Source: a virus
Taxonomy: Duplodnaviria; Caudoviricetes
DNA length: 64,000 nucleotides
Virus record (IMG/VR): IMGVR_UViG_3300025934_000001
Location: 45,417 to 109,416 of that record
Strand: one strand, 5' to 3'
Shown: positions 5,221 to 22,950 of the stretch, piece by piece
Numbering within the stretch: the stretch's first letter is position 1
How the letters are laid out: every line of letters begins with the position of its first letter
Position numbers and translations under genes: made by a program
The notes under the pieces: model-generated
The model's database searches: none
Told to the model about the DNA's origin: nothing
What the model saw: the letters and a program-made list of their open reading frames with translations, nothing else

Positions 5221-8200
5221 ATGGCCGGTCTGTTCGACGACGTGCTGGCCCCGGCCGCGCCGGCCTCCAAGCCGGGGCTGTTCGACGACGTCCTCAACCC
5301 CAACGCGCCCACCGCCAAGGGCGGGCTGTTCACCGACGCCAAGCCGCCAGTGCTGGAGCCGGGGGAGGAACCGCCGAAGTTCGACTTCTCGGCTCCAGTG
5401 GGCGAAGAGGGCTTCATCGGCGCCATGAAGGCGGTCCCGGGCAGCGCCGAGCGCGCGGCCAAGATAGCAATCCCGCAAATGGTGGGGCAGACCGAGCAGT
5501 GGTTCGGCAGCGGTATGGGGCTGCCCGCGCTGGAGCAGTACGGCAAGGACGTGCAGGCCCGCGCCGAGGCCCGCGCCGAGACCACCCCGAAGGAAACGCT
5601 GGTCAGCCAGCGGGCGCGCGAGGACAGCTGGACCAACACCCGCGGCTGGGTGGAGCCGGGGATCGAGAACACGGTGCGCTCGTTCGCCCCGACGGTGGCG
5701 GGCGCGGTGATTGGCGGCGTGGCCGGCTTGGTGGTCGGGGGGCCGCCGGGCGCTGCTGCGGGTGCGATAACCGGCGCCAAGTGGGGCGCAGTGGCAGGGG
5801 TGCCGCTGTGGTACGCCAGCCAGGCGCAGGAGACCCACGACAAGGTGAAGAAGGCGCAGCTGACCAAGATCGGCGGGCTGGACGAGAAGCCGCCCGGTAT
5901 GGTCACTCCCGGCAACATCGACCTCACCGACCGCCCGGTGGTGCAGAACGCGGACGGCACCATCAGCACGGTCAAGACCATCGGCGTCAACTTCGGCGGC
6001 CAGGAGACCGTGATTCCGACCGTCAGCGACGACGGCCGCATCCTCTCCAACGCCGAGGCCATCGCCCAGTTCCGCAAGACCGGCAAGCACTTCGGCCAGT
6101 TCGATAGCGTCGCGGCGGCCAACGCCTACGGCCAGGCACTGCACGTGGCGCAGCAGAAGATGTACGACCCCAAGGTGCAGGCCAAGGTGGAGGCCGACGC
6201 CAACGAGGCGGGCCACATCAGCGGCACCATCGAAGGCGCAACCGACTACGTCCTCTCCAAGATCGGGATTGGCGCGTGGACCAAGCCGCTCAAGGCGAAG
6301 CTGGCCGGGGGGGCCAGCGGGGTCGCTGTGAAGTCGCTGTTCGGGGCTCCGGTCAAGCAAGCGGTGAAGACGGTGGGCGGGGTCATCGCCAAGGAGATCC
6401 CGGTCGAACTGGGCCAGCAGGCCGGCGAATCCGCGGTCGAGGGCGCCTACGGGGCCGGGCCGGGGGCGACCTGGAAGGACACCATGAGCGTGTTCGGCCC
6501 GACGGTCGTCATGGGCCTGATCACGGGTGTCCCGGCTGCTGCCCACAACCACTACAGCCGCGGGCAGACGCAGCAGTTACTGGGCAACGGCACTGCTGAC
6601 CCGACCGACCGGAAGGGGGCGGCGCTGACCGTCGGGGCGGCGCTGAAGGAGAACCACCCCGGCGTCGCCGCTGCATTCCTGCTGTACGCCAACGACCAGA
6701 TCGCCGCCAACCAGCCGATCGCGCTGGAGAACGACGCCTTCTACCAGAACTACGCGACGACGCGGCCACCGCCCCCGCCGCCTCCTGCTGGCGGCACCGC
6801 GGCACCACCGCCTACGGGGCCGCCCCCGCCGCCTCCAGCCGGGGGTACGCCGGGCGCCACCCCTCCGCCGAACCAGCCGCCGCCAACGGGGAACCCACCC
6901 ACCCCGGGCGGCCAACCTACCCCACCCCCGACCGGAACCCAACCACCCCCCCCGACGGGGCCGGGACCCGGCACGCCTCCCCCAACGACCCCCACCGCGC
7001 CGCCCAACGCGCCGGCATCGTCGGCCGCCACCCTGCTGCAGCACGCCGCCACCCGCTGGGACGAACTCTCGCGCAAGGCCAACGGCACCCCCGACCAGAC
7101 CATCGTGGGGCCGGACGGCAAGGCGCGGGTGGTGCCCGGGCAGCAGCCGGAATACCTCACCCGCGAAGAGCTCACCGAATACCAGTTTCTGCGCTCCCAC
7201 CGCGACAACCCGGAGCAACTGGCCTCGCGCCTCGGGGTGCGCCTGCTCACGCCCGCGGAAGAGCACGCCCAGGCGCGGGTCGAGACCCAGCAGCGCACTG
7301 GAATAGACCCGGGTACGGGGGTCGTCGGCGCGGCAGCGGCGGCAGCGGTCGACAGCGGGGTCGCCGCCAATCCACTCACCGGAGGCGTCAATGCCCTACA
7401 AGAGCCGAGCGCAACAGGGGTACTTCCACACCCACCAGAAGGAACTGGAGCGCCAGGGGGTGAAGGTGGCGGAGTGGGACCAGGCCAGCAAGGGGCTGAA
7501 GTTGCCGGCCAAGGTGCGCCCGAAGCCCAAGGCCCGCAGCTGACCACGCCGGCCTACGCGACGGAGGCCGCAGCCCAGGCGAAGGCGCAATACCTGACCA
7601 CGCAGTCCGGGGTGCCGCATGAGGTGGTCGAGCATCCGGAGTCCCCCGGCGCCTTCGCGGTGCAGGAGAAGGAAGCGGAAGGAGAGCCCAGTGGTACGGA
7701 TCAAGCAGACACGGGAAGAGGCGAAGGTGAGCCGGCAGATCAAGGCCATGCAGAAACAACGGGAGAGGCAGCGCCAGCCGCAGCCCCTGCCGAAGGCGCG
7801 CCCGCCGCGGGGACGGTAACAGAAGAACCGGCGGCGGTGAGGCCGGAAACCACTGAACACCTCACCCCCGAGGATCTGCAGCCGCTGGTCGACAAGCTGA
7901 ATGAAGTCGTGGCCGCCGACCAGGCGGTGAAGGCCGCGAAGAGCGCCAAGGCGCAGAAGGAACACAAGCCGGCCATCAACACCAACGAGCAGTTGCTGCT
8001 GGCGGGGGCGCAGCGCGATCTGCGCGAGGGCAAGCCGGGGGCGCTCGACGAACTGCGCAAGATGGTGGGGATGCACCACGAGCCGGGCGACTGGATCGGC
8101 GGCACGGTGCGCAAGCAGCTGCGGGATCTGCTGATGCGGAAGGCCCCGCCGCACTGGAACTACGAGACCCTGGGCGCGATCGCGGAGGATGCCAAGAAGC

Positions 8201-11200
8201 ACAAGCGTGGCGCCACCATCCGCGAGACCCTGGACGAAGCCCGCGACATGATGGACGCGGGCGATCCCGCCGCCTACAACGCGCTCAAGAGCGCCGCCTT
8301 CCAGGCTGGCTACAACAGCGACCTCGGCAACCGCATCCTGGGGCTGATCAAGGAAGCCCACAGCCCGGAAGCGGCGGCGGAGGTGGCGGAAGCCAAGGCG
8401 GCGACGGAGCCGGTGCCCCACCTTCGTGAGAAGGAAGCGGAAGAGGAAGTCATCCCCGTCACCGAGGCGCAGGCCGAGGCCTGGCGGGAGCACTACGCCG
8501 GGATGAAATTGAGCGAGGCGAAGCCGGGCAAGCTGCCGACCATCACGCCGGTCACCCACGCCGGCAGCCAGTGGGTGGTGACCGGAGTGCAAGGCGGGAG
8601 CACGCATCCGTGGCAGCTGAAAGTGCAGGAACTGGTGCCCGACGGCTTGGGGCCCGAGTGGAAGAAGGGCCAGCCGCCGGGCTCGTTCTACGACGGCCGG
8701 CGGGTGCAGGTGCGGGGCGGCAAGACGTTTCAGATGGGCGTGCGGAAGGCGATCTTCGAAGCGCCGAGCACCCCCGAGCAGGAGAAGAAGCGGGCCGAAC
8801 TGAAGGCCCGGCGCGAAGCGGATGAGAAGGCCGAGGCGGAGCGGATCGCCGCCTATCCGCGCGACGTCGAGGGCCGCTCGCCCAACCAGGCCGGCGTGTA
8901 CCAGCCGACCGAAACGCTCGAGCTGCCGGTCACCAAGAAGAACTGGCGCGGCGTCGCGCTGGCGGAGATCAACCTGGTCGAACTGCGCGACGGCACTTGG
9001 CGCATGGGCCTGTCCTCCAACTTCAACCACGGCAGCATGACCGGCACCGGCTTCGCTCCGAGCGCCGATGGGCACAGCTTCGCCACCCGGGCGGAAGCGC
9101 TGGACGCCGCGATCGCGCGTCTACGCCGCCATGCCGAGTCGTTTGCCGCGGGCCGGGAGAACAAGGGGATGCCGGCGCAGGCCGAGGCCAACAAGGTGCT
9201 GAACTGGCTGGACGGCCTGCAGGTGCCGGGGCGGGCGAAGGCGGAGCCGACCGGCGACGCCGAGGCCGAGCGCATCGCGGGCTTGAAGACCGAGGCAGGG
9301 CAGAAGGCGATCGCGCGCTCCCGCGACAGCTTGCGCGAGAGCTTCGATCGGGCCATCGCCGCCTGGAAGCCGCGCGAGAGCTTGGGGGTCTACATCCGCG
9401 ATGACCCCAAGAAGCGCGGCTGGCTGGGGATCTTCGTCAGCGAAGGCCACGGTCCCGAGAAGATGCTCATCAGCGTCGAGCTGACCCCCGGCAGCAACGT
9501 CGCCGTCGGGCCGTGGGATCTCGGGCAGATCAGCAAGGTCTTCCACGCCTGGCTGCAGAAGCAGCCCAAGGCCGAGCGGCGCATTCCCACCCATGCCGAG
9601 CAGCAGGATCGCTCGCGCGACGAGGCCAAGCGGGCGCTGGAAGGGGCGCTCAAGAAGGCGGAAGAGGCCGGCGAGCTGTGGGAGTTGAGGGCCGGGCTGG
9701 TCGGGCTGCAGGCGCGGCTGAACAGTGGCTCTAGCAGCGCACCGCCGTACTACGCCAAGGCCGTGGCGGAGCGGATCGACAAGCTGATCGCGGCGGCGCA
9801 GAAGGATCCCGAGCGGACCTTCGATTTCTGGCTGTCGAAGGGCCTGACCCCGCGCCAGAAGCGCGACGCCGAGAAGCGCGCGGTGGCCGAGCAGAAGGCC
9901 GCCGAGCGGGCGGCGACGCTGGAGCAGCGCATCCGCAAGGCCAAGGACGACATCGCCCGCATCGAGCAGCGGGCCAGCGCCGAAGCAATGGAGAACTGGC
10001 GCGCGGCCACGCCCAACATCCGCCATACCTTCCCCACCAGCATGACGGTGGAGTCCAAGGCGGCGAAGGCGCAGTTCGAGGCCGAGGCGCTGGCCAAGCG
10101 GCAGCCCACCATCGACCAGCTGCGCAACAAGATCGAGGCGTGGGAGGTGCAGCTGGGCCTCCGCGCGGCGCCCGTGCGCGAGCCGGAAGGGCCGCAGTAC
10201 GACTTCCAGCAGACCTTCCCCGAGCCCGACGTCGAGGAAATGAATCGCGCCGGGCGCGAGGCACCGTATGCGGCGGGCGACCAGGTGGCCGCTGCTGCCT
10301 GGCACGCCGATGTGGCGGAGGAACTGCGGCGGCTGGTGAAGGCGGAGGAAGCCGACGAAACGGCCTTGCGCGGCAGCCTGCCGCCGGACAAGCGGACCAA
10401 GGTGCAGGCAGCGCTGCGCGAAACGCGCGAACTCTACAACGCCAAGATGGGCGAGTACCGCGATCTGTTCGGCGATGCGGCGCACCTGCAATTCGAGTCG
10501 CACGTGCATGGTCTGGAAGAGCCCGCCGCCAAGAAGCCGGTGACGCCGCAGGTGGAAGCGCCGCCCGGCTCCGCCCCGCTGGGGATGAAGACGCCGGAAG
10601 CGCCAGCGCCCACACCGGCGCAGCCGCAGTTCGCCAAGAACACCGTCTTCACGCAGGACGCGGTAGCGGCTGCACGCGAGCGGTCGCGCAAGAAGCTGGG
10701 CACGCTGCGCACCGGCTTCGATCCGGAGCTGTTCCAGGACTTGGTGACTATCGCCGGGGCCTACATCGAGTCCGGCGTGCGCGAGTTCGCCGCGTTCAGC
10801 AAGGCCATGATCGAAGACCTGGGCGAAGGCGTGCGGCCCTATTTGCGCACGGTTTACGATGGGTTACGCTCGTGGCCTGGGCTCGAAACCGTCGGGATGA
10901 CCCCGGCGGCCGACATCGACGCGGAGGCCGCACGTGCACACATTCAGCCAGCAGGCCCTGGTGAACCTGGGGCGGGAGCACTGGAGAGAATTCCAGCCGA
11001 AGCGTTACAAGGCACTCCAGCAGGCGGGGAAGCTGGAGCAGGAACTGCAGGCCGCGGCCAATCTGACGTTGAGCGAAATGGAGAGCAGCCGACAACTGGG
11101 GTACACGCAGGAGGAAGCGTGGGAGTTGTCCATGCAGAACCACCTGCTGGTGCCACCGGAGAAGGGCAGCCCGCAGGAGCCGCTGCCGGACAACCCGGCG

Positions 11201-14200
11201 TACACGTCCCTAGCGGAGGTCAATCGGATGCGGGACCAACCGCCCCCGGCGAGCCCTTCCCGCAAGCCCACAACTTCGTAATCACCGACGAGATCGAACT
11301 CGGCAAGGGGGGCCTGGTCCAGAAGTTCAAGGACAACGTAGCCGCCATCCGGCTGTTGAAGCAGATCGAGAGCGAGAACCGCCGCGCTACGCCGAACGAG
11401 CAGAAGATCCTGGCCAAGTACGTCGGCTGGGGTGGCCTCAAGCAGGTGTTTCCGCCGCCCGGCGGCAAGCTGGCCAAGGGCTGGGAGGCCCGGGTGGCCG
11501 AGGTGCGCGACCTGCTCACCCCGGACGAGCACGAGGCCGCGGCCCGCACCATCCTCGACGCGCACTACACCAGCCGCGAGATCGTCGAGGGCATCTGGGC
11601 CATCGCGCAGCGCCTCGGCTTCACCGGCGGTAAAGTGCTAGAACCGTCGATGGGCAGCGGCAACTTCTTCGGCCTGCTGCCGGCGGACCTGCGCAGCACC
11701 ACCTCGCTCACCGGGGTGGAGCAGGACCACATTACCGCGCGTATCGCCAAGCAGCTGTATCCGGAGGCGGCGGTGCTGGGGCCCGTGGGGTTCCAGGACA
11801 CCAACATGCGCAACGGCCACTTCAACCTGGCCGTGGGCAATCCGCCGTTCGGCCCGCAAACGCTGTTCGACGAGCACAGCCGCCACCTGCGCGGGTTCTC
11901 GCTGCACAACTACTTCTTCGCCAAGGCGATCGACAAGCTCGCCCCCAACGGCATCCTGATCCAGGTGGTGTCGCGCTACCTGATGGATGCGCAGACTTCC
12001 ACCGCGCGCGAGTACCTGGCGCACCGCACCGAACTGCTCGGGGCCATTCGCCTGCCGTGGACCGCGTTCTACGCCAACGCGAATACGGAAGTCGTTACCG
12101 ACATCGTCATCCTGCAGAAGCTGCCGAGCGACCAGTGGGGTGGCGCCGACCAGACCTGGACCCAGACCACCGAAGTGCCGGACCCGCTGGGGGGCAAGCC
12201 GATCCGGGTGAATGCCTACTTCGCCGCGCATCCGGAAATGATCCTCGGCACCATGGATCGCAGCGGCGAAATGCTGCATGAGAACGACGTCACGGTGCAG
12301 CCGCGCAAGAACGAGCCGCTGGCGGTGGGCCTGGCCAACGTCATCGCCACCCTGCCCGAGGACCGCTATACGCGCGGTAAATCAGAGGAAGAGGTGCAGC
12401 ACGAGGCCACCGCGGCGGTGAACGACGACGGCGTACCCACGGGCGACACCGGCTCCTACCACGAGGCTCACGGCTTCCTGCAGCAGGTGGTGCAGAACGC
12501 CGACGGCAGCCTGGGGCTGGTCAAGATCACCGCCGACACGCTGTGGAACGCCGACGCCAAGCCGGAGACCCGGCTCGATCCCAAGACCGGCCAGCGGGTC
12601 ACGGTGGAGCCGGCCAAATGGGGCGTGGAGCGGCTGGCGCGGGTGCGCGCCATGGTCGCCATCAAGGACACCGACCGCGAGTTGCTGCGGGCCGAGGCGA
12701 CCGACGCGCCGCTGGCGCGGCTGTCCTACCTGCGGCAGCAACTGAACGAGCAGTACGACGCCTTCGTCGCCCGCTACGGCTACCTCACCGACCAGGCCAA
12801 CGAGCGGGCCTTCCGCGCCGATCCCGACGCGCCGCTGCTGCTGGCGCTGGAGACCGACTACGACCGCGGAGTCTCGGCCGATCGCGCCAAGACCCTCGGG
12901 GTGCCCGCGCGCAAGCCATCGGCCAAGAAGATGCCGATCTTCACCCAGCGGGTGGTGCTGGCGCGGGTGGCCCCCACCACCGCCGCCAACGTGCGCGACG
13001 GCGCGGCGGTCTCGCTGAACGAGCGCGGGATGCTGGATCCGGCCTACATCGCCCAACTCACCAGCAAGACCCCCAACGCGGTGATCGCCGAGTTGACCGA
13101 CGGTGAAAAGCCGATCGCCTTTTTCGATCCGATCCAGCAGACCTACGAGCCGGCGGCGGAATACCTCTCGGGCAATGTGAAGCGCAAGTACGCCGAGGCG
13201 CTGCAGGCGGGGCTGACCAAGAACGCGGACGCGCTGCGGGCGGTGTTCCCGGCCGATCTCAAGGCCGGCGAGATCGCGGCGCGGCTGGGCTCGCCGTGGA
13301 TCGAGACCGCGGCCTACGAGGGCTTTGCGCAGCACCTGTTCGGACCCACCACCGAGGTGCGGGTGGGCTACCTGCCCGGTACCGGCGGCTTCGCGCTGGC
13401 GCTGGCCGGGGGCGACAAGGCGCTGCGCGAGACCCGCTGGGGCGTCAACCACGTGGCGCTGCTCGACGCCAACGGCCAGGAAAGCGGCGCCTTTGCCGAC
13501 GGCCGCGACGGCGACGACCTGCTCTCGCGCGTGCTCAACAACAAGGATCTCACCGTCTACCACACCGACCAGGACGGCAACCGCTACTCGCACCCGGAGG
13601 TGACGCAGGCCCTCGCTGACCGCGCCGACGAAATGCGGCAGGAATTCGAGCTGTGGATCTTCAAGGATCTGGAGCGGCGCGAGCGTCTGGTGCAGCACTA
13701 CAACGACAACTACAACACCAACGTCAAGCCGGTTTACGACGGGTCCTACCTCACCTTCCCGGGCAAGGTGCCGGACACGGTGATCCGCTTCCGCAAGCAC
13801 CAGAACGACGCGGTCGCCCGCATCATCCGCACCGGCAAGATCCTGCTCGATCACGTGGTGGGCGCGGGCAAGACCTACACCATCATCGCCGCCGCCATGG
13901 AACAGCGCCGCCTCGGCCTCAAGAACAAGCCGCTGGTGGTGGTGCCGAATCATCTGGTCAAGCAGTGGGCGTCGTCGTGGTATCGGCTGTATCCGGCAGC
14001 CAAGATCCTGGCCATGCGCAAGGAGGATTTCTCCAAGGTCAACCGGCAGCGGATGCTGGCGCGCATTGCCTCCGGCAACTGGGACGGCGTGATCTTCGGC
14101 CATTCGTCGTTCGGCTTCATGGCCAACGATCGCTCGCTGGTGCTGGCCGAAATGAGCAAGCAGGTGGAGCAGATCCAGGAGGCCATCCGCGCCGCCCGCG

Positions 14201-17200
14201 AAGTCGAGGGCGCGCGCTCGCAGACCGCCCGGCAATACCAGCGGCAGAAGGAGCGCCTCGAGCAGAAGATGCGCGAGCTGGCGTCGAAGCCGCAGGACAA
14301 GCTCTTGACCTTCCAGGAGCTGGGCGTCGACATGCTGTACCTGGACGAGTCGCAGGAATTCAAAAACCTCTTCTTCACCACCCAGCGCCGCAACGTCGGC
14401 GGCTTCGGCAACCCCACCGGCAGCAAGAAGGCCTTTGACCTGTTTATCAAGGGTCAATGGCTGCAGAACACCTACAACGGCGGCGGGCTGGCCTTCGCCA
14501 GCGGCACCCCGGTCAGCAACAGCCTGACCGAGCTCTACACCCTGCAGCGCTACCTCGGCCTCACCGAACTGGAGAACCGGGGGCTGCTCTCGCTCGACGC
14601 CTGGCTCAACACCTTCGGCGTGGTGGAGTCGGAGTACGAGTCCAACGTCACTGGCACCCGCTACAAGCGCAAGGATCGGCTGCGCCGGCTGACCAACGTG
14701 CCGGAAGCGCAGCAGATGTATCACGCCTTCGCCGACGCGGTGACGATGGACACCATCAAGGCCAACTTCCGCGCCGATCACAACGGGGCCGAGTTTCCGA
14801 TCCCCAAGGTCAAGGGCGGCAAGCCGCGGCAGAACGTGGTGGTGCCGGCCTCGTGGCTGCAGCGGTCCTACTCCGCCGGGCTGCAGCTGCGCATGGAGAG
14901 CCTGCGCCGCGGCGGTACCGACAACGCGCTGGCCATCCTCACCGACGGGCGCAAGGCGGCGCTCGACATCCGCCTGGTGGACCCGAGCGCGCCCGACAAC
15001 CCGACCGGCAAGAGCAACACCGCCGTGGGCGAGATCAAGCGCATCTACGAGGCCAATACCTACCGTAAAGGCACGCAGTTGGTGTTCCTCGATCTCTCCA
15101 TGCCCTTGAAGCAGGGCGTGAAGGCGGCCGAGGGCTACTTGAAGGAAGGGCGCGAGTTGCTGCCGCTGGGCGTTACCGTGCCCGCCGTGGGGACCATGAC
15201 CAGCCAGTGGCAGCAACTGCACGCGGCGCTGGTGGATCACCTGGAGAACCTGGACGAGGACCAGGCGCCGAACGCGATCGAGCAGCTGGAGGCCTTCCTC
15301 GCGCAGTCCACCGACATCGGCGCGGCGATGACCACGGTGGACAGCAAGTTCTCGGTCTACGACGACATGAAGGCGAAGATGATCGCCGCCGGCATTCCGG
15401 CCAACGAGATCGCCTTCATCCACGACGCCAACACCGAGCAGCAGAAGCAGGATCTATTTGATCGAGTAAATGCCGGCAGCGTGCGGGTGCTGATGGGCTC
15501 GACCATGAAGATGGGGGCCGGCACCAACGTGCAGCAGAAGGCGGTGGCGCTGCATCACATCGACGTGCCGTGGCGGCCGTCCGACATCGAGCAGCGCGAG
15601 GGCCGCGTCATCCGGCAAGGCAACGAGTTTCGCCAGGCCGATCCCAATTTCGAGGTGGAGATCCTCGCCTACGCCACCGAGGGCACCTCGGACGTCTTCT
15701 TCTGGCAGACGCAGGAGCAGAAGCTCAACGCCATCAACAGCCTTCGCAACGCTTCCGGCGAGCGCGAACTGGAGGAAGTGTCCAGCGACACCATGAGCGC
15801 GGCGGAAATGAAGGCGCTGGCCTCGGGCAATCCGCTGATCCTGGAGGACGTGAGCCTGACCGAGAAGGTGCGCAAGCTGTCCGCGCAGCAGCGCCGGTTT
15901 ACTTCCGAGCAACAGGACCTGGAATCGCAGGCAGCGCGCTACGAGCGCCAGATCGCCGGGCTGCCGGCGCTGATCGAGGAACAGAAGGACGTAGCCGCCA
16001 AGGCCGACGCCTACCACGCCGATCCGTTCGCCGGGGTAACGCGGAAGACGGTCGAGGTCGACGGCCAGCAGCTGAATGCGACCCAAGCCGGGGCGCACAT
16101 CCGCGAGGTGGCCGAAGCAGCGAAAGCGGTAGCCAAGGCCACCGACGAGCCGCGCGACGAGCGCCTGAAGACGCTGCGCGCGCAGGCGGTCGAGCTGTCT
16201 GCGCAGGGGAAAAAGAACACCCCGGAATACCAGGCGATCGAGACCGAGTTCAAGGCCCTGTTGGCGGCACCCGACACCAAGCCGGTGCTGAAGATCACGG
16301 TGGCCGGCAAGACCTACATCAACGAGAACGGCGCGGTAACCGCGGTGGAGCGCGAGGTGGGCGACATCCACGCCTTCCGCTTCGTCGGCGCCGACGGCCA
16401 CGAATACATCCGGCGGGAGGAACTGGAGGCGGCCCTCAAGCGGACCCTGGCGGCGCAAATGGGGCAGCCGGAGGCGGAGCAACTCGGCACCCTCGGCGGC
16501 CTTCCCGTGACGCTGCAGTGGACCCAGGGCCGCTACGGGGTTGGGTTCGAGGTCAGCCTCGGTACCGAGAGCCGCTTCCTGGAAGAGCGCGCCGCCACCC
16601 AGTTCATGCAGGCCGAGCGGGTCGATGGCGTGAAGGTCGTCAGCGCCATGATGCGGCTGCTGCGGGACGCGCCGGTGGTCCTGCACGAGACCCAGACGGC
16701 GCTCAAGGCGGCGCAAACCGGCCTCGCGCCGGTGCAGGCGCAGCTGGGCAAGACCTGGGGCAAGGAGGGCGAGCTGGCGGCGGCGCGGGCGCGCCTGACC
16801 GAGGTGCGGCTGCTGCTGTCCGGCGCTACGCCCACCGCGGCGGCGCCCTACGAGGGCCCCATGAGCTATCGCGGGGTGCAGATCGCCGGCCCCTATCAGG
16901 TGCCGCCCGGTGGAATGCGCTACTCCCTCGGCGGGGCCGCCGGCCAGTCGCTGAATACCAAGGCGGCGGTGGAGGCGGCGATCGCGGCGGTGGTGGCGAA
17001 GTGGCGCAACGCGCCGCGGCTGACTGTGGTGCAGTCGGTGGCGGAACTGCCGCCCTCCCCCGACGGCAAGCCGTACCCGCTGACCCTGCGCGGCGTCTAC
17101 TTCGGCGGCCACGTGTTCCTGGTGGCCGACAACATCCTGCCGGGGCGGGAGCAGTTCGTGGCCTCGCACGAGGCGCTGGGCCACTTTGGGCTGCAAGGCT

Positions 17201-20200
17201 TGCTGGGCGATCAACTGCAGCCGCTGATGGAGCAGATCTACCGCAGCAACCCGAAGGCCAAGGCGGCGGTCGATCGCATGATCGCCGAGGTCAAGGCCAA
17301 GTATCCGGGGCTGCATTACGACATCGCGCGGGCGACCGAGGAATACCTGGCGGATTTGGCCGAGGCCGGGCGGCTGACCGAGGTCAAGGGCTGGCGGCTG
17401 CTGGTGGCGGCGATCCGCAAGGCCTTGCGCGCGATCGGCTTCACCGTCGAGTTCTCCGACAACGACATCGTGGCGCTGCTGGCGAATGCCCGCCGCTACG
17501 TCGAGCAGGGGGCGCGGCAGCCGCAGGTGCAGGGCCAGTTGGAGCCGGCGCTGTCGACCACGGGCCAGGCGGCCCCGCTGTGGTATTCGGCGCTGGCCGA
17601 GGCGGTGGCAGGGGCGAAGCAGACGCTGGCGCCTTCCGCCATGTGGCAGGGGCTTCTCAAAAACCTGCCCGGGGTGAAGAAGGAAGAGGTGGAGTGGTCG
17701 GGCCTGCGCGAGTGGCTGCAGCTGCAGCAGGGCAAGGTGAGCAAGGACGAGATCATGGCCTTCCTCAAGGCCAACGGGGTGCAGGTGGAAGAGCGGGTGT
17801 ATGGAGCGCCAGAGGCGGGCGGGCCGGCGCTGCAGGAGGAACGCGAAACGCTGGAAGAGGAACTGGGGCGGCACGGCTTCCAGGTGGGCTATACGCAGAG
17901 CGGGCGCCTCGACACCCTCACCCGCGACGACCAGACCTGGGCGCAGAACCACGACAACGACAACTGGGTGGCGCTGGATCCGGCGACCGGCGATGTGATG
18001 GAGAACGGGCCGTCGCTGCCGGCCGACGCCGAAATGGCGGCCATGGCCCTGCAGCGCGTCACCGATCCCGGCTATGAGCCGGGGCAGCTGCGCGCCGCCC
18101 AGTTCAGTGGCTGGAAGCCGGTGAAGCAGGGCGGCCAGAACTACCGCGAACTGGTGCTGACCCTGCCGTTGCACCAGCCGTCACTGGCGCTGGACGTGTT
18201 CAAGGCCAAGCTGGCGGCGAAGTACGGCATCGAGGGGGACGAGGACAGCCCCGCCAGCGGCCTCATGTCACAGGCCGATCGCTTCGAGCTGCAGCGGCTG
18301 CAGGCCGAGGCCAGGAAGCAGGAGGCCCGCAACTACAAGGGCGGCCACTTCAAGGCCTCGCCCAACTCACTCCTGCATATCCGCTTCGACGAGCGCACCG
18401 ACGCCGAGGGCAAGCGGGTGCTGTTCATCCAGGAGCTGCAGTCGGACTGGGGGCAGAAGGGCGGCCAGTTCGGGTTTGCCGACGATCGCGCCGAACAAGC
18501 CATGGCGGCGTATGAGGCCCGCCGCAATGCGCTGCAGGCGCGCTACGACGACCTGGTGGCGCAGTGGAACGCGGTCCCCTTCGGCGGGGTGGGCATCACC
18601 ACGGAGGTGCGGCAGCAGCGCAACGAGCAGCGCGCGGCACTGATGGATCAGCGTTCCGCCGCGCACCGGGACCTGATGGCGCTGTACCAGGAGCGCCCCC
18701 CGACCCGCAGCCACTACAGCACCATCCCGGCCGCCCCCTTCGTGGCCAAGCGCGAGTACGCGGTGTTCACCAAGAACGCGGAGGGGGTGGAAGAGGAAGT
18801 CACCCGCACCCTCAAGACCGAGGGCAAGGAGGACCAGCAGGTTGCGCAGCGCTACGGCACGCTGGAAGAGGCGCAGGCCGCCGCCAAGAAAGTGGAGGGC
18901 GGCGAGGCGCGCGACGTCGGCTACGGCGAGAACACGCCGGCGTGGGTGGGGCTGGGGCTGAAGCGGATCATCCGCTGGGCCGCCGATCACGGTTTCGACC
19001 GCATCGCCTGGGCCACCGGCGACCAGCAGGTGGCGGCCTACCCGGGGCTGGAGAAGCACATCGACAAGTTGGACGTCACCGCCGAGCCGCGCACCTATGG
19101 CGGCAAGATCTGGCGCGTCAAGGGGCTGAATCCGGCCGGCGAGGACGTGGTCCACATCACCGCCTACGACGAGAAGCAACTGCAGAAGGCGATCGGCAAG
19201 GAACTGGCCGCGCGCGTTCTCCGCGACACCGCCCACGCTGCCACTGCCAACTACCGCAACCTCGACACCAAGATCGGCGGCGAGGGGATGCGCACCTACT
19301 ACGACCGGGTGCTCCCCAACATCGCCAACGATGTGTTGAAGAAGCTGGGCGGCGAGCGGGTGCGGGCGCTCACCGGGGTGATCGACCCCAAGACCGCCAC
19401 CTATGACGGGCCGGTGGGCCAGGACTTGCTGAACCAGTTGCGCGACATCGTCCGCGGCGGGCACCCGAGCCAGGTGGGGCAGACCGAGGCACAGATCGCG
19501 CCGGTGCGGGCGGCGGCGCGGGCGGTGCAGACCGCCTACTACGGCACCGCCAGCACCCGCGAGGCGATGGAGGCCCACGCCACCCCGGAACTGCTGGCGG
19601 CGGTGGGCGGCACCCTCACCAAGGCGGATCCCAGCGGACTCCAGCCCGGCTTCGACGTCACCCCGGCGCTGCGGGCGAAGGCGCTACAGGGAATGCCGAT
19701 GTTCTCCCTGGCGCAGCAGGCCACGGCGGCCTTCCGCCGCTGGTTCGGCAACAGCCAGGTGGTGACCGACCGCGGCGCTCCCATGCGGGTGTTCCACGCC
19801 ACCAGCGCCACCCGCGACTACGTCATCTTCCGCCGCTTCGCCCACTTCGGCACGGTGGAGCAGGCCAACTTCCGCAGCGCCTACGAGCCGCTGGTGCTGC
19901 CCTACCAGAACCGGCAGGCGCAAGGGCCCAAGCGCACCATCCCGGTGTACCTGTCGATCCAGAACGCGCTCAAGATCGACGACACCGGCGAGCAGCACGA
20001 CGTGCAGTTGCTGACCGACCTGGCCCGCGACGCGGGCGGCATCAGCGACGAGCAGTGGCTGTGGATCCGCGGCCGCTCGCTCGACCGCCAGCTCGAGCGG
20101 CTGTCGGAGCGCGATCGCGGCGACCGCCTGATCGCGGCGCTGAAGAAAAACGGCTTCGACGGCTTCTACTACGAGAACGACGTCGAGGGCAGCGGCCTCT

Positions 20201-22950
20201 CCTGGATCGCGCTGGAGCCGTGGCAGGTGAAGAGCGCCATCCACAGCGGCTTCTCGCTGGAGCACCCGGCCTACAACGCCTCGCTGTCCGACATCGCCGA
20301 GGCCGCCACCAACCTGGTGACCGACCTGCTGCGGGGCAATCCGCGCAAGTTCAACCGCCTGCTGACGCCGCTCAATACCCCCTTCCATCTGGCGCAGAAG
20401 CACCCCGGCTACCGCCGCGCCTACGAGGCGGTGCAGGCCTACCTGCGCGACGTCACCGCCTTCGCCAGCGCCGCCGCCGACCACGCCACCAGCATCCTGC
20501 CCAAGCTGGGCTGGCGCAGCACCCGGGCACCGAAGGAGGACCTGGCCGCCGCCGGACACGCCCTGTTCGCCGCCACCCTGGCCGACCTGCGGCCAACGCT
20601 GCCGCAGCTGCTGGCGGGCTTCACCGCCAACGTGCAGTACGGCACCACCATCGGCCCCATCACGGTGCCGCCGCTGACCCGCGCGCAGGCGGTGCTGTTC
20701 GGCCAGGCGCGGCAGGCGATCGACCGCTCGCTGGATCAAGTGGCGATGAGCGAGATCCACCAGATCGCCAAGGGCTACCGCATCGCGCGGACGCTGCGCG
20801 ACGCCAAGGCCGATCCGGCGCGCGGGCCGCAGATGGTGATCCAGGTGCTGCAGGCCAAGCTGGCCACCCTGCAGCCGGGCACCCCCGAACACACCGAGCT
20901 CGACAACGCCATCGCCGCCATCGAGCAGGTGGCCGAGCGCACCACCAACCTGCAGGACCGCGGCTACGCCCCGCTGATGCGCTACGGCGAGTACACGCTG
21001 AAAGTGGAGCAGGTGATCAACCAGGTGCCGACGCTGCTGTTCTACGGCATGTTCGAGAGCAAGGTCGCCATGTACGCGATGGAGCGCAAGATGAAAGCGC
21101 TCCATCCGCAGGCGCTGACCACCGTCGGCACCCTCGATACCGAGTCGTTCAAGCTGTTGCGCGGGCTCAATCTGTCGGCGATCGAGAGCTTCGCCAACAT
21201 CGTCGGCTTGAGCCGGGATCAAGCCTTCCAAGCCTACTTCCGCAACGCGGTGGCCAACCGCTCGGCCCTCAAACACCTGCTGCACCGCCACGGCGTGGCG
21301 GGGTACAGCGAAGATCTCTCCCGCGTGCTGGCCTCGTTCATTACCAGCAGCGCCCGGCTGGCGTCGAAGAACTACCACTTCACCGACATCAACGAGGCGG
21401 TCAACGCCATTACCGACGGTGATGTGAAGGGCACGGCCTCCAAGCTGGCCGAGTACGTGAAGAACCCGATGGAAGAGCTGCCGGTGATCCGCGGCCTGTT
21501 GTTCGTCAACTTCATTGGCGGCTCGGCGGCGGCGGCGCTGACCAACCTGACGCAGACGCCGATGCAGACGCTGCCGCTGATCTCGCAGTACCAGGGCGGC
21601 GGCTTCCTCAATGCTGCTGCGCCGACCAAGGCGATGGCCGCTGTGCTCGCCGCCATGCGCCTGCCCACGCCGGCAGTGGGCACGCCGCTGGCGCTGGCGC
21701 TGGACCAGGCGGCGCACGAGGGCATCACCGAACCGCAGGAGGTGCACCAGCTGTACGCCGAGAGCATCCGCGGGATCGGCAAGAACCTGGCGCTGCGCAA
21801 GGCGCTGCGGGCGTGGGGCGCCATGTTCGCGGCGGCGGAGAGCTACAACCGCAAGGTGGCCTTCATCGCCGCCTTCAAGACTGCCGAGGCGCGCGGCATG
21901 GCCGCCATCAACGCCGCCAGCCGGCGCGGGGTGCAGACCTTCGCCAACCCCTACGAGTTCGCCCGCTACGTGGTCGACGCCACCCAGGGCGTCTACAACC
22001 GCGGCAACCGGCCGCAGCTGGGCCGCACCGCCGTCGGCGCGACGGTGATGACCTTCAAGCAGTTCGTCATCAGCTACCTTGAGTTTGTGAGCCGTTTGCC
22101 GGCGCGCGAGAAGACCATCGCGCTATCGCTGTTGATCCTGGCGGCGGGACTGCAAGGCCTGCCCGGCGCGGACGACCTCGAGGACCTGTGGGACACCATC
22201 GCGCAGATGCTGGGCTACAACGCCAACAGCAAGAAGTGGCTGCGCGAGAAGGCGGTGGAGTTGCTGGGCGAGCAGTGGGGCGGGCTGTTGACCCACGGCG
22301 TATCGCAGCACCTGCCGTTCGACATCCAGGCGCGCATGAGCTTCTCCAACCTGCTCCCCGGCACGGCGGCGTTCAAGCCGTCGGACGCCACCCACAAGGC
22401 CTCCGAGGTAGCGGAGGTGTTCGGCCCGGTCGGCGGCTTCGCCAAGCAGATCGCCTCCGGGGCCGAGGCGCTGGCCTCGGGCAACTGGCAGGGCGCCGGC
22501 ACCGCTGCGCTGCCGAAGGCGATTGCCGACTGGGTCAAGGGCGTGGATATGTGGCGCAGCGGGATCTACAAGGACATCCGCGGCAAGAAGGTAATCGCGG
22601 TGGACAAGCTCGACGCCGCGCTCAAGTTCATTGGGGTGCAGCCGTCGGTGGTAGCGCAGGAGCAGCTGAAGCGCAGCGATCTGCAGCAGTCGATCGACTT
22701 CACCAAGAGCACCGAAACCCGGATCGTCAGCGACTGGGCCCGCGCGATCGTCGACAAGGACGAGGCCGGGATCAAGGCCGCAGTCAACGCGCTGCATTCG
22801 TGGAACCTCAAGAATCCGGAGTGGCCGATCCGCATTACGCCGAACCAGGTGAAGCAGCAGGCCTATGATCTGCTGCGGGATAGCACCCAGCGGTTGATGC
22901 GGCAGACGCCGAAGGATCTTCGGCCCCAAGCGCAGCGTGAGCTGCGGTAA
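5221..22950 (+). CDS. Giant (5,909 aa) DarB-like large polyvalent virion protein: N6-adenine MTase + SNF2 helicase + zincin + ART-like + PLxRFG-like
   Basis: LEPSMGSGNF (~11640) and NPPF (11839); DHVVGAGKT (~13850), DESQ (~14345), QREGRVIRQG (~15590); HEALGH (17167); IQELQSDW (~18430); 'FRRWFGNS..VFHAT..PVYL..GFDG' (19730-20250); PLMRYG (~20970). Confidence 0.9.
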   Translation: MAGLFDDVLAPAAPASKPGLFDDVLNPNAPTAKGGLFTDAKPPVLEPGEEPPKFDFSAPVGEEGFIGAMKAVPGSAERAAKIAIPQMVGQTEQWFGSGMGLPALEQYGKDVQARAEARAETTPKETLVSQRAREDSWTNTRGWVEPGIENTVRSFAPTVAGAVIGGVAGLVVGGPPGAAAGAITGAKWGAVAGVPLWYASQAQETHDKVKKAQLTKIGGLDEKPPGMVTPGNIDLTDRPVVQNADGTISTVKTIGVNFGGQETVIPTVSDDGRILSNAEAIAQFRKTGKHFGQFDSVAAANAYGQALHVAQQKMYDPKVQAKVEADANEAGHISGTIEGATDYVLSKIGIGAWTKPLKAKLAGGASGVAVKSLFGAPVKQAVKTVGGVIAKEIPVELGQQAGESAVEGAYGAGPGATWKDTMSVFGPTVVMGLITGVPAAAHNHYSRGQTQQLLGNGTADPTDRKGAALTVGAALKENHPGVAAAFLLYANDQIAANQPIALENDAFYQNYATTRPPPPPPPAGGTAAPPPTGPPPPPPAGGTPGATPPPNQPPPTGNPPTPGGQPTPPPTGTQPPPPTGPGPGTPPPTTPTAPPNAPASSAATLLQHAATRWDELSRKANGTPDQTIVGPDGKARVVPGQQPEYLTREELTEYQFLRSHRDNPEQLASRLGVRLLTPAEEHAQARVETQQRTGIDPGTGVVGAAAAAAVDSGVAANPLTGGVNALQEPSATGVLPHPPEGTGAPGGEGGGVGPGQQGAEVAGQGAPEAQGPQLTTPAYATEAAAQAKAQYLTTQSGVPHEVVEHPESPGAFAVQEKEAEGEPSGTDQADTGRGEGEPADQGHAETTGEAAPAAAPAEGAPAAGTVTEEPAAVRPETTEHLTPEDLQPLVDKLNEVVAADQAVKAAKSAKAQKEHKPAINTNEQLLLAGAQRDLREGKPGALDELRKMVGMHHEPGDWIGGTVRKQLRDLLMRKAPPHWNYETLGAIAEDAKKHKRGATIRETLDEARDMMDAGDPAAYNALKSAAFQAGYNSDLGNRILGLIKEAHSPEAAAEVAEAKAATEPVPHLREKEAEEEVIPVTEAQAEAWREHYAGMKLSEAKPGKLPTITPVTHAGSQWVVTGVQGGSTHPWQLKVQELVPDGLGPEWKKGQPPGSFYDGRRVQVRGGKTFQMGVRKAIFEAPSTPEQEKKRAELKARREADEKAEAERIAAYPRDVEGRSPNQAGVYQPTETLELPVTKKNWRGVALAEINLVELRDGTWRMGLSSNFNHGSMTGTGFAPSADGHSFATRAEALDAAIARLRRHAESFAAGRENKGMPAQAEANKVLNWLDGLQVPGRAKAEPTGDAEAERIAGLKTEAGQKAIARSRDSLRESFDRAIAAWKPRESLGVYIRDDPKKRGWLGIFVSEGHGPEKMLISVELTPGSNVAVGPWDLGQISKVFHAWLQKQPKAERRIPTHAEQQDRSRDEAKRALEGALKKAEEAGELWELRAGLVGLQARLNSGSSSAPPYYAKAVAERIDKLIAAAQKDPERTFDFWLSKGLTPRQKRDAEKRAVAEQKAAERAATLEQRIRKAKDDIARIEQRASAEAMENWRAATPNIRHTFPTSMTVESKAAKAQFEAEALAKRQPTIDQLRNKIEAWEVQLGLRAAPVREPEGPQYDFQQTFPEPDVEEMNRAGREAPYAAGDQVAAAAWHADVAEELRRLVKAEEADETALRGSLPPDKRTKVQAALRETRELYNAKMGEYRDLFGDAAHLQFESHVHGLEEPAAKKPVTPQVEAPPGSAPLGMKTPEAPAPTPAQPQFAKNTVFTQDAVAAARERSRKKLGTLRTGFDPELFQDLVTIAGAYIESGVREFAAFSKAMIEDLGEGVRPYLRTVYDGLRSWPGLETVGMTPAADIDAEAARAHIQPAGPGEPGAGALERIPAEALQGTPAGGEAGAGTAGRGQSDVERNGEQPTTGVHAGGSVGVVHAEPPAGATGEGQPAGAAAGQPGVHVPSGGQSDAGPTAPGEPFPQAHNFVITDEIELGKGGLVQKFKDNVAAIRLLKQIESENRRATPNEQKILAKYVGWGGLKQVFPPPGGKLAKGWEARVAEVRDLLTPDEHEAAARTILDAHYTSREIVEGIWAIAQRLGFTGGKVLEPSMGSGNFFGLLPADLRSTTSLTGVEQDHITARIAKQLYPEAAVLGPVGFQDTNMRNGHFNLAVGNPPFGPQTLFDEHSRHLRGFSLHNYFFAKAIDKLAPNGILIQVVSRYLMDAQTSTAREYLAHRTELLGAIRLPWTAFYANANTEVVTDIVILQKLPSDQWGGADQTWTQTTEVPDPLGGKPIRVNAYFAAHPEMILGTMDRSGEMLHENDVTVQPRKNEPLAVGLANVIATLPEDRYTRGKSEEEVQHEATAAVNDDGVPTGDTGSYHEAHGFLQQVVQNADGSLGLVKITADTLWNADAKPETRLDPKTGQRVTVEPAKWGVERLARVRAMVAIKDTDRELLRAEATDAPLARLSYLRQQLNEQYDAFVARYGYLTDQANERAFRADPDAPLLLALETDYDRGVSADRAKTLGVPARKPSAKKMPIFTQRVVLARVAPTTAANVRDGAAVSLNERGMLDPAYIAQLTSKTPNAVIAELTDGEKPIAFFDPIQQTYEPAAEYLSGNVKRKYAEALQAGLTKNADALRAVFPADLKAGEIAARLGSPWIETAAYEGFAQHLFGPTTEVRVGYLPGTGGFALALAGGDKALRETRWGVNHVALLDANGQESGAFADGRDGDDLLSRVLNNKDLTVYHTDQDGNRYSHPEVTQALADRADEMRQEFELWIFKDLERRERLVQHYNDNYNTNVKPVYDGSYLTFPGKVPDTVIRFRKHQNDAVARIIRTGKILLDHVVGAGKTYTIIAAAMEQRRLGLKNKPLVVVPNHLVKQWASSWYRLYPAAKILAMRKEDFSKVNRQRMLARIASGNWDGVIFGHSSFGFMANDRSLVLAEMSKQVEQIQEAIRAAREVEGARSQTARQYQRQKERLEQKMRELASKPQDKLLTFQELGVDMLYLDESQEFKNLFFTTQRRNVGGFGNPTGSKKAFDLFIKGQWLQNTYNGGGLAFASGTPVSNSLTELYTLQRYLGLTELENRGLLSLDAWLNTFGVVESEYESNVTGTRYKRKDRLRRLTNVPEAQQMYHAFADAVTMDTIKANFRADHNGAEFPIPKVKGGKPRQNVVVPASWLQRSYSAGLQLRMESLRRGGTDNALAILTDGRKAALDIRLVDPSAPDNPTGKSNTAVGEIKRIYEANTYRKGTQLVFLDLSMPLKQGVKAAEGYLKEGRELLPLGVTVPAVGTMTSQWQQLHAALVDHLENLDEDQAPNAIEQLEAFLAQSTDIGAAMTTVDSKFSVYDDMKAKMIAAGIPANEIAFIHDANTEQQKQDLFDRVNAGSVRVLMGSTMKMGAGTNVQQKAVALHHIDVPWRPSDIEQREGRVIRQGNEFRQADPNFEVEILAYATEGTSDVFFWQTQEQKLNAINSLRNASGERELEEVSSDTMSAAEMKALASGNPLILEDVSLTEKVRKLSAQQRRFTSEQQDLESQAARYERQIAGLPALIEEQKDVAAKADAYHADPFAGVTRKTVEVDGQQLNATQAGAHIREVAEAAKAVAKATDEPRDERLKTLRAQAVELSAQGKKNTPEYQAIETEFKALLAAPDTKPVLKITVAGKTYINENGAVTAVEREVGDIHAFRFVGADGHEYIRREELEAALKRTLAAQMGQPEAEQLGTLGGLPVTLQWTQGRYGVGFEVSLGTESRFLEERAATQFMQAERVDGVKVVSAMMRLLRDAPVVLHETQTALKAAQTGLAPVQAQLGKTWGKEGELAAARARLTEVRLLLSGATPTAAAPYEGPMSYRGVQIAGPYQVPPGGMRYSLGGAAGQSLNTKAAVEAAIAAVVAKWRNAPRLTVVQSVAELPPSPDGKPYPLTLRGVYFGGHVFLVADNILPGREQFVASHEALGHFGLQGLLGDQLQPLMEQIYRSNPKAKAAVDRMIAEVKAKYPGLHYDIARATEEYLADLAEAGRLTEVKGWRLLVAAIRKALRAIGFTVEFSDNDIVALLANARRYVEQGARQPQVQGQLEPALSTTGQAAPLWYSALAEAVAGAKQTLAPSAMWQGLLKNLPGVKKEEVEWSGLREWLQLQQGKVSKDEIMAFLKANGVQVEERVYGAPEAGGPALQEERETLEEELGRHGFQVGYTQSGRLDTLTRDDQTWAQNHDNDNWVALDPATGDVMENGPSLPADAEMAAMALQRVTDPGYEPGQLRAAQFSGWKPVKQGGQNYRELVLTLPLHQPSLALDVFKAKLAAKYGIEGDEDSPASGLMSQADRFELQRLQAEARKQEARNYKGGHFKASPNSLLHIRFDERTDAEGKRVLFIQELQSDWGQKGGQFGFADDRAEQAMAAYEARRNALQARYDDLVAQWNAVPFGGVGITTEVRQQRNEQRAALMDQRSAAHRDLMALYQERPPTRSHYSTIPAAPFVAKREYAVFTKNAEGVEEEVTRTLKTEGKEDQQVAQRYGTLEEAQAAAKKVEGGEARDVGYGENTPAWVGLGLKRIIRWAADHGFDRIAWATGDQQVAAYPGLEKHIDKLDVTAEPRTYGGKIWRVKGLNPAGEDVVHITAYDEKQLQKAIGKELAARVLRDTAHAATANYRNLDTKIGGEGMRTYYDRVLPNIANDVLKKLGGERVRALTGVIDPKTATYDGPVGQDLLNQLRDIVRGGHPSQVGQTEAQIAPVRAAARAVQTAYYGTASTREAMEAHATPELLAAVGGTLTKADPSGLQPGFDVTPALRAKALQGMPMFSLAQQATAAFRRWFGNSQVVTDRGAPMRVFHATSATRDYVIFRRFAHFGTVEQANFRSAYEPLVLPYQNRQAQGPKRTIPVYLSIQNALKIDDTGEQHDVQLLTDLARDAGGISDEQWLWIRGRSLDRQLERLSERDRGDRLIAALKKNGFDGFYYENDVEGSGLSWIALEPWQVKSAIHSGFSLEHPAYNASLSDIAEAATNLVTDLLRGNPRKFNRLLTPLNTPFHLAQKHPGYRRAYEAVQAYLRDVTAFASAAADHATSILPKLGWRSTRAPKEDLAAAGHALFAATLADLRPTLPQLLAGFTANVQYGTTIGPITVPPLTRAQAVLFGQARQAIDRSLDQVAMSEIHQIAKGYRIARTLRDAKADPARGPQMVIQVLQAKLATLQPGTPEHTELDNAIAAIEQVAERTTNLQDRGYAPLMRYGEYTLKVEQVINQVPTLLFYGMFESKVAMYAMERKMKALHPQALTTVGTLDTESFKLLRGLNLSAIESFANIVGLSRDQAFQAYFRNAVANRSALKHLLHRHGVAGYSEDLSRVLASFITSSARLASKNYHFTDINEAVNAITDGDVKGTASKLAEYVKNPMEELPVIRGLLFVNFIGGSAAAALTNLTQTPMQTLPLISQYQGGGFLNAAAPTKAMAAVLAAMRLPTPAVGTPLALALDQAAHEGITEPQEVHQLYAESIRGIGKNLALRKALRAWGAMFAAAESYNRKVAFIAAFKTAEARGMAAINAASRRGVQTFANPYEFARYVVDATQGVYNRGNRPQLGRTAVGATVMTFKQFVISYLEFVSRLPAREKTIALSLLILAAGLQGLPGADDLEDLWDTIAQMLGYNANSKKWLREKAVELLGEQWGGLLTHGVSQHLPFDIQARMSFSNLLPGTAAFKPSDATHKASEVAEVFGPVGGFAKQIASGAEALASGNWQGAGTAALPKAIADWVKGVDMWRSGIYKDIRGKKVIAVDKLDAALKFIGVQPSVVAQEQLKRSDLQQSIDFTKSTETRIVSDWARAIVDKDEAGIKAAVNALHSWNLKNPEWPIRITPNQVKQQAYDLLRDSTQRLMRQTPKDLRPQAQRELR
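7391..7543 (+). CDS. Nested 50-aa basic protein overprinted in the +1 frame of the giant ORF (MPYKSRAQQGYFHTHQKELERQGVKVAEWDQASKGLKLPAKVRPKPKARS)
   Basis: GGAGG 7381-7385, ATG 7391, TGA 7541-7543; codons are G/C-ending in this frame while the host frame is atypical; resembles the small phage 'MPFKSKAQ..EWD..KLP' type. Confidence 0.75.
   Translation: MPYKSRAQQGYFHTHQKELERQGVKVAEWDQASKGLKLPAKVRPKPKARS
7691..7819 (+). CDS. Nested 42-aa basic peptide overprinted in the +1 frame (MVRIKQTREEAKVSRQIKAMQKQRERQRQPQPLPKARPPRGR)
   Basis: AAGGAG at 7679-7684, GTG 7691, TAA 7817-7819; host frame is A-ending and low-complexity here. Confidence 0.5.
   Translation: MVRIKQTREEAKVSRQIKAMQKQRERQRQPQPLPKARPPRGR
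10934..11281 (+). CDS. Nested 115-aa helical protein overprinted in the +1 frame, loosely TnpV-like
   Basis: GGAGG 10923-10927 then GTG 10934; protein-like 'REHWREFQPKRYKALQQAGKLEQEL..EEAWE'; host frame is a G/A/E/P linker with GGA/GCA/CAA codons. Confidence 0.75.
   Translation: MHTFSQQALVNLGREHWREFQPKRYKALQQAGKLEQELQAAANLTLSEMESSRQLGYTQEEAWELSMQNHLLVPPEKGSPQEPLPDNPAYTSLAEVNRMRDQPPPASPSRKPTTS

Follow-up and report, generated by a model that had tools for sequence, protein, structure and literature searches.

A probable TnpV-related gene nested in the linker of a giant DarB-like phage gene

The nested reading frame and its host gene

The stretch of DNA considered here (the window, 64,000 nucleotides) corresponds to positions 45,417 to 109,416 of the IMG/VR virus record IMGVR_UViG_3300025934_000001, a member of the Caudoviricetes (Duplodnaviria); positions given without the name of another record or locus are those of the window, and the features described on it lie on its + strand. 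The subject of this study is a small open reading frame (ORF) that is embedded out of frame in a giant phage gene and whose product recalls the TnpV family. The host gene (5221-22950) is a single ORF of 5,909 codons. As its product contains an Eco57I-type methyltransferase (MTase), ResIII/SNF2 and Helicase_C helicase domains, and an ART-PolyVal domain (all by Pfam), it belongs to the 'polyvalent', or DarB-like, phage proteins. The label DarB-like is taken from these domains and from the annotation of homologues, which are called 'DarB-like antirestriction' or 'PLxRFG'; a homologous MTase module is found in 91 phage records. In the host frame, the start of this module occupies 11266-12705 (AHNFVITDE...GWGG...NPPFG); as in all relatives, the module opens with the motif AHNFVITDEIELGKGG, which in the window copy begins at 11266.

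The nested ORF (P0001, encoding the TnpV-like small protein) occupies 10934-11281 in frame +1 of the host ORF and comprises 115 codons, from a GTG start at 10934 to a TAA stop at 11279-11281. A Shine-Dalgarno (SD) sequence, GGAGG (10923-10927), lies 6 nt 5' of the GTG, and the nested frame is closed upstream by a TGA (10898-10900) located 12 codons 5' of the GTG, with no start codon in between. A sequence-only reading of this locus had pointed to the GGAGG-N6-GTG signal and the 115-aa ORF, to the motif HW.E..P..Y..L...GKL...L in its product, and to a stop falling where the MTase region of the host protein begins; all of these are present in the window, and the nested stop falls at the MTase boundary because the host-frame motif starts at 11266. 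The conserved core of the small protein (residues 1-77; 10934-11164) is a predicted four-helix domain that ends in an LLVPPE motif, and it is followed by a variable, mostly disordered tail (11165-11278) with one low-confidence helix at residues 88-100. The phage record that carries the gene has direct terminal repeats, which places the small protein in a mobile-element setting.

Between 10900 and 11275 the DNA is read in two frames. In the host frame, this stretch encodes a Gly/Ala/Pro/Glu-rich low-complexity linker (host residues ~1894-2018) located between the N-terminal modules and the MTase module. The length of the nested ORF is by itself uninformative, because alternative-frame ORFs of 100-800 codons are abundant in the 68% GC host gene. 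What lifts it above chance is a frame switch in codon-position GC content, together with same-frame homologues in many phages. Elsewhere in the giant gene, GC at host codon positions 1, 2 and 3 is typically ~0.7/0.45/0.9, whereas across ~10900-11275 it shifts to 0.86/0.70/0.40, so that host GC3 drops from ~0.9 to 0.4. Read in the nested frame, the same values become 0.70/0.40/0.86, i.e., a normal coding pattern. Position 2 of each nested codon is position 3 of the overlapping host codon. The pattern reverts to the host frame at ~11230-11260.

Homologues of the nested gene were found in a wide range of elements. With the 115-aa product as a query, tblastn matched 16 phage records (best E 5e-13, Atu_ph08), and all 16 matches lie beneath annotated giant DarB-like/PLxRFG genes. 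In particular, coordinates and ORF listing show that the matches in Atu_ph08, VvAW1, Mwe-JY07, SopranoGao, LASTA, and POI1126 are in frame +1 relative to the giant CDS. The match in phage Itty13 is likewise in frame +1, relative to an open frame of 1,072 codons that the annotation of the record lacks. Including Itty13 and Pavtok, eight named phages have a +1-frame homologue and an open host frame. Beneath the nested ORF, every annotated phage record examined shows either the giant gene alone or a wrong-strand call. The 1,072-codon frame of Itty13, a Pseudomonas phage (NC_070969.1, 5587-8805; locus L006), carries both the MTase homology and the nested ORF; the two 'hypothetical protein' CDSs that the record lists on the opposite strand are probably a wrong-strand annotation in a GC-rich genome.

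A scan of IMG/VR by pattern and tblastn yielded 62 loci, all with the small ORF in the +1 frame and with an uninterrupted host frame across it; in 61 of them the host frame continues upstream as the giant gene (up to the start of that gene in VvAW1-type loci). As a start codon, 60 loci have an ATG at the family N-terminus or upstream of it, one has a GTG, and one has only an internal ATG. Equivalent nested ORFs in other DarB-like genes, on which the sequence-only reading had staked its claim, are thus found in eight named phages and 62 IMG/VR loci. When one genome per prokaryote species was scanned, 35 loci were obtained, in 24 of which the small gene is nested in the +1 frame of a long ORF; they come from Alpha- and Betaproteobacteria, Chlorobium, Marinimicrobia, Myxococcota, Thermodesulfobacteriota, Ignavibacteria, and Fibrobacter. 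When 1.84 billion representatives of clusters at 50% identity were searched with the family profile, 1,387 clusters matched at E<=1e-3, of which 540 reached E<=1e-10; most of the matches are proteins of 75-130 aa called as genes on short contigs. The hosts of the family include Proteobacteria, Cyanobacteria, Chlorobi, and Fibrobacteres, to which true TnpV adds Firmicutes. The window protein itself has no close relative in the collections (48% identity at best), and a word-indexed protein search with this single sequence returned no match except itself.

When 8 of the 91 records with an MTase module were sampled among those missed by single-protein tblastn, a clear nested copy was found in Pavtok (E 9.5e-38). 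Divergent +1 ORFs of ~107 codons lie directly before the MTase module in Burkholderia phage Bcep22 (L108:2127-2450) and Ralstonia phage Gerry (L109:2142-2465). They are 41% identical to each other, and the Bcep22 ORF aligns with the family profile at E 4e-5 (hhalign). These two ORFs constitute a second, divergent family, weakly related to that of the window and to TnpV. In Pseudomonas phage 8P, a 90-codon +1 ORF with a protein-like sequence (L107:2154-2426) lies directly before the MTase module; neither sequence comparison nor hhalign with the family profile detected any similarity to the family, and this ORF may be a third nested family or a chance occurrence in a 65% GC gene. Among plasmids, the Fibrobacter-type nested protein had no tblastn match, and the sole match of the phage-type protein in the plasmid collection (H17) is NZ_CP137607.1, a 59-kb non-mobilizable 'plasmid' of Brucella pseudintermedia, in which it lies beneath a PLxRFG-domain gene. 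The size and gene content of this replicon suggest a phage or phage-plasmid of the same group.

Selection, fold and relation to TnpV

The maintenance of both frames was assessed by resampling, in which the nested protein was held fixed and its codons were redrawn from the codon usage of the same phage. Among 43 distinct sequences, the host frame is open in all 43, whereas the mean expectation under resampling is 0.06 (range 0-0.44); the third frame is closed in all 43. For the window copy taken alone, the host frame stays open in 37% of resamplings. Substitutions between close pairs fall predominantly at position 3 of the nested codons (283, vs 96 and 93 at positions 1 and 2), and 253 of the 472 are nonsynonymous for the host reading but synonymous for the nested one. 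The dN/dS ratios (Nei-Gojobori, NG86; 18 close pairs) of the nested and the host frame are, respectively, 0.16 and 2.19 in the core, and 0.43 and 1.27 in the tail. Across homologues, the host-frame reading consists to 85% of G/A/P/S/T/E/Q/D/R, and I/L/M/F/W/Y/C make up 4.6% of it, compared with 17% in the flank. From the dN/dS contrast and the host-frame composition it follows that the amino acid sequence of the small protein is under purifying selection, and that the giant protein's reading of the stretch is a disordered linker selected mainly for staying open. The hallmarks of dual coding are found together here, namely two frames open beyond the expectation from codon usage, purifying selection on the nested product, and start signals of its own.

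An AlphaFold2 model based on the 43-sequence alignment predicts a four-helix core (helices 6-20, 22-30, 34-54, and 59-70), with pLDDT >90 over residues 6-70. The window protein carries what defines the family: the invariant core residues H16, W17, P22, T45, G56, E61, and A62, all of which are present, the C-terminal core motif YL(F/L)xP.E, and the modelled four-helix fold. Family members are mildly acidic (median pI 5.2). In many of them the tail contains a short amphipathic-looking helix after a Pro/Glu-rich spacer (residues 88-100 in the window protein, ~11195-11233), which could be a docking motif. Searches for structural relatives gave little: Foldseek against the PDB found nothing at E<=0.001, the family profile found nothing among PDB sequences at E<=10, and a search of BFVD returned the fusion protein of phage PBC5 (see below) and no other. 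An exhaustive structural scan ranked PG0816 (PDB 2apl), a structural-genomics protein of Porphyromonas gingivalis, first (Z 8.2, rmsd 2.8 A over 67 residues; next Z 5.5). Although PG0816 is the best fold match to the four-helix core, a Z of ~8 lies within the range that common packing can produce among small helical bundles. Being functionally uncharacterised, PG0816 adds no mechanism, and a literature search on it found nothing relevant; the likeness is only a lead.

The sequence-only reading had proposed a loose likeness to the TnpV family (PF14198). This holds for the family, which borders PF14198, but the window protein itself has no match to the profile. PF14198 matches 51 of 90 family members at E<=1 (best 2.2e-5), compared with 4 for the runner-up Pfam family. 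The 27-bit gathering cut-off is reached by P0178 (27.0 bits) and by the nested ORF of Fibrobacter locus L105 (29.3 bits), the others scoring 22-25 bits; the matches span positions ~15-94 of the 111 in the profile, and six family members bear precomputed PF14198 labels. By transitive homology, the sequence family of the window protein thus overlaps PF14198. Moreover, a true TnpV is found at the same position in a Listeria element (L112:555-899; 29 bits, full length), in the +1 frame and ~150 nt before a homologous MTase. This ORF is nested under ArdC-like/SNF2/MTase annotations in 95 Listeria plasmids (e.g., NC_003383.1, CP044431.1) and is identical across 88 records; 2 of 30 Listeria records, among the matches listed, label it 'TnpV protein'. 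An hhalign comparison of the family profile with a single Listeria TnpV was not significant, a Pfam scan of the window protein gave a single chance-level match (CspB_prodomain), and a six-frame PF14198 search of the whole phage record returned nothing at E<=10.

The window protein and the TnpV of Tn4451/Tn4453-type mobilisable transposons and of Firmicute plasmids and integrative and conjugative elements (ICEs) have in common that they are small (~110 aa), helical, and borne by mobile elements. TnpV and the window family also share an N-terminal pattern, aromatic/His ... P..Y..L...G.L...L. The one functional statement found for TnpV is a 'postulated' role in excision, derived from a claimed likeness to Xis (PMC3158075), whereas the window protein is modelled as an all-helical bundle. 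On the profile evidence, the window protein is best placed in a divergent branch bordering TnpV, below Pfam-threshold membership.

Competing explanations and route of expression

These observations make it very probable that 10934-11281 is a genuine, separately translated gene of a distant TnpV branch that overlaps the disordered linker of the giant gene. We infer that the frame of the small gene is the older reading and the linker the derived, overprinted one. The nested frame looks older because its composition is coding-like, its product is folded and under purifying selection, and some of its relatives in the TnpV family stand alone; the host reading looks derived because it is of low complexity and evolves fast. 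Usually the embedded gene is the newcomer in an older gene, so that the order would be inverted here. Several features of the window copy weigh against its being such a gene: it is among the more divergent members of the family, it starts with GTG instead of ATG, the Trp of the N-terminal 'NW' motif, which is nearly invariant in the family, is missing, and it has no match to PF14198 at E<=10, which leaves it below the gathering cut-off.

The best-surviving alternative, though an improbable one, builds on these features and regards the small gene as a relic that is not expressed, or not needed, in the window phage, with a coding-like composition that was inherited and has not yet eroded. It draws on the divergent N-terminus and the GTG start, on the openness of the host frame, which in this copy would occur by chance as often as the resampling above indicates, and on the lack of a close relative, owing to which selection on the window lineage itself is not measurable. 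Nevertheless, the invariant residues are all kept, the ORF is intact, and the SD sequence is strong and well spaced. In addition, the nested GC3 of 0.86 equals that of the flanking single-coding parts, which argues against long neutral drift, and the nested frame is under purifying selection in every relative in which this was measured.

As regards expression, an SD-like motif is found at -16..-5 in 41 of 43 homologues, compared with 18% of control positions, and in many loci the nested frame contains stops 1-5 codons before the start, so that there is no room for entry by frameshifting. Independent internal initiation therefore seems the best reading of these signals. Since a scan of 10500-11500 found no sigma-70-like promoter and no intrinsic terminator, the small gene is presumably translated from the (late) mRNA of the giant gene, with ribosomes entering at the internal GGAGG-N6-GTG. 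In that case, the producing cell would synthesise the small protein together with the giant virion protein.

A programmed +1 ribosomal frameshift, by which ribosomes would leave the giant ORF and make a truncated N-terminal product ending in a TnpV-like domain, has a still smaller chance of being correct. It can appeal to the record of phage PBC5, in which the upstream frame continues without a shift through the TnpV-like segment and ends at the stop of that segment; this fusion (Q8W6J4) is the only clear structural match in BFVD. However, PBC5 is a single record, and a frame change of one base just upstream sets it apart from its close relatives. Apart from the upstream stops, which leave almost no space for a shift site, the conserved start codon and SD-like motif would be superfluous for a domain reached by frameshifting, and gene callers report the homologues as free-standing proteins of ~100 aa. 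By eye, no conserved slippery motif was seen in the printed upstream sequences, for which no formal slippery-site search was run. In the PBC5 record itself (a Sinorhizobium phage, NC_003324.1; L002/L038), the one-base difference joins the upstream part to the small ORF and divides the giant gene into two; the split may be real, or the record, an old one, may contain a sequencing error.

That the ORF is a chance open frame, of which a 68% GC gene offers many long ones, or the product of two compensating assembly indels can be regarded as already refuted by the comparative data, since the same protein recurs in the same frame and position in >90 independent assemblies of 42-70% GC, is matched by tblastn in named phages at E values down to 5e-13, and has a confidently predicted AlphaFold fold.

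Possible function and meaning of the arrangement

The constant neighbour of the small gene is the downstream MTase-helicase module and not the upstream domain. In VvAW1-type phages the upstream region differs, and in Atu_ph08-type phages an extra domain separates the small gene from the MTase. The Fibrobacter locus L105 has an MTase ORF of 1,142 codons, at the 5' end of which the small gene is nested, again in the +1 frame. The same +1 placement 5' of an MTase-helicase is found in phages of Proteobacteria and Cyanobacteria, in prophages, and in Listeria plasmids, and its recurrence across such distant elements suggests one old arrangement. Because of this recurrent link, an accessory role for the MTase-helicase is a reasonable guess. 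The small protein may thus serve as an accessory factor of that module, e.g., in its folding, in its packaging or transfer, or in restraining it in the donor cell, although the odds are somewhat below even; an independent regulatory or anti-defence role appears about equally likely. The sequence-only reading had gone further, to a possible dedicated partner (chaperone or inhibitor) of the MTase-helicase that overprinting keeps stoichiometric. Overprinting, however, fixes no stoichiometry, as the rate of initiation at an internal start is set by that start. A complex prediction for the nested core with a 480-residue MTase module scored 0.01, which speaks neither for nor against binding.

Other observations weigh against an accessory role. 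In 11 of the 35 genome loci, the small gene is intact without a long surrounding host ORF. No nested ORF was found in three Firmicute-type records that bear the MTase (L110, L111, and L113). Tn4451-type elements are not known to carry an MTase-helicase. Their canonical TnpV has been reported as a stand-alone gene (PMC3158075). At two of the 'stand-alone' genome loci, L097:3970-4443 and L100:3694-4377, the small gene is intact, and the overlapping -1 frame runs through the linker and the opening residues of the MTase motif to a stop; at most of the others, a linker-like stretch is still readable before the stop. These loci look like truncated polyvalent genes with a breakpoint right at the start of the MTase module. 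The idea that they represent the ancestral state was dropped, as L097 and L100 are remnants that still read through the linker into the start of the MTase motif. Even so, an intact small gene beside a truncated MTase gene, as in these two loci, speaks against strict dependence and belongs with the objections above.

In its strongest and decidedly speculative form, the accessory hypothesis would see in the overlap of a TnpV-type gene with an MTase-helicase linker one ancient obligatory unit, the small protein being a dedicated, cis-encoded handler. Such a unit would be shared by Firmicute conjugative plasmids and by the virion-injected proteins of phages of Gram-negative bacteria. The handler would act as a chaperone, a loading factor, or a donor-cell inhibitor of the transferred MTase-helicase, and the +1 overlap would persist by making the pair inseparable during modular shuffling.

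In phage P1, the accessory Dar proteins Hdf, DarA, and DdrA are reportedly needed to load DarB into capsids. They are small proteins made together with a giant MTase-helicase anti-restriction protein, and as such they provide a functional precedent for an accessory role of the window protein. The P1 genes are separate, however, whereas the window gene is nested, and no relationship in sequence or structure was seen; P1 is not among the phages in which tblastn with the 115-aa product found a homologue. Same-strand, out-of-frame nested genes are known from other systems, namely Rz1 in Rz (phage lambda), comS in srfAB (Bacillus subtilis), and B in A and E in D (phiX174). The window gene resembles them in being complete, in having start signals of its own within a longer same-strand gene, and in that both readings are in use. 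In contrast to them, the embedded gene looks older and constrained here and the surrounding linker overprinted, and the overlap, of ~100 codons, is conserved over 1,387 clusters and several host phyla. Iyer et al. (2017), in their paper on polyvalent proteins, do not mention TnpV or overlapping frames, and a literature search found no paper describing a TnpV-like gene nested in DarB-like phage genes or in Firmicute polyvalent genes. Hence, same-strand nesting itself is known, and what is new is its occurrence in DarB-like phage genes and in a divergent TnpV-like branch.

Few long same-strand overlaps in bacteria and their phages have solid comparative support, and in the present one the phage and plasmid cases are tied together by frame and position. 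The nested gene is missed by normal annotation. Its recognition would add a hidden protein to the gene lists of phages of the Atu_ph08, LASTA, Pavtok, and VvAW1 types, and a divergent version of it to those of the Bcep22 and Ralstonia phages. Frame-blind engineering or 'silent' recoding of such linkers would strike a second gene. Finally, TnpV function becomes testable, because an uncharacterised family gains a recurrent partner, the MTase-helicase anti-restriction module.

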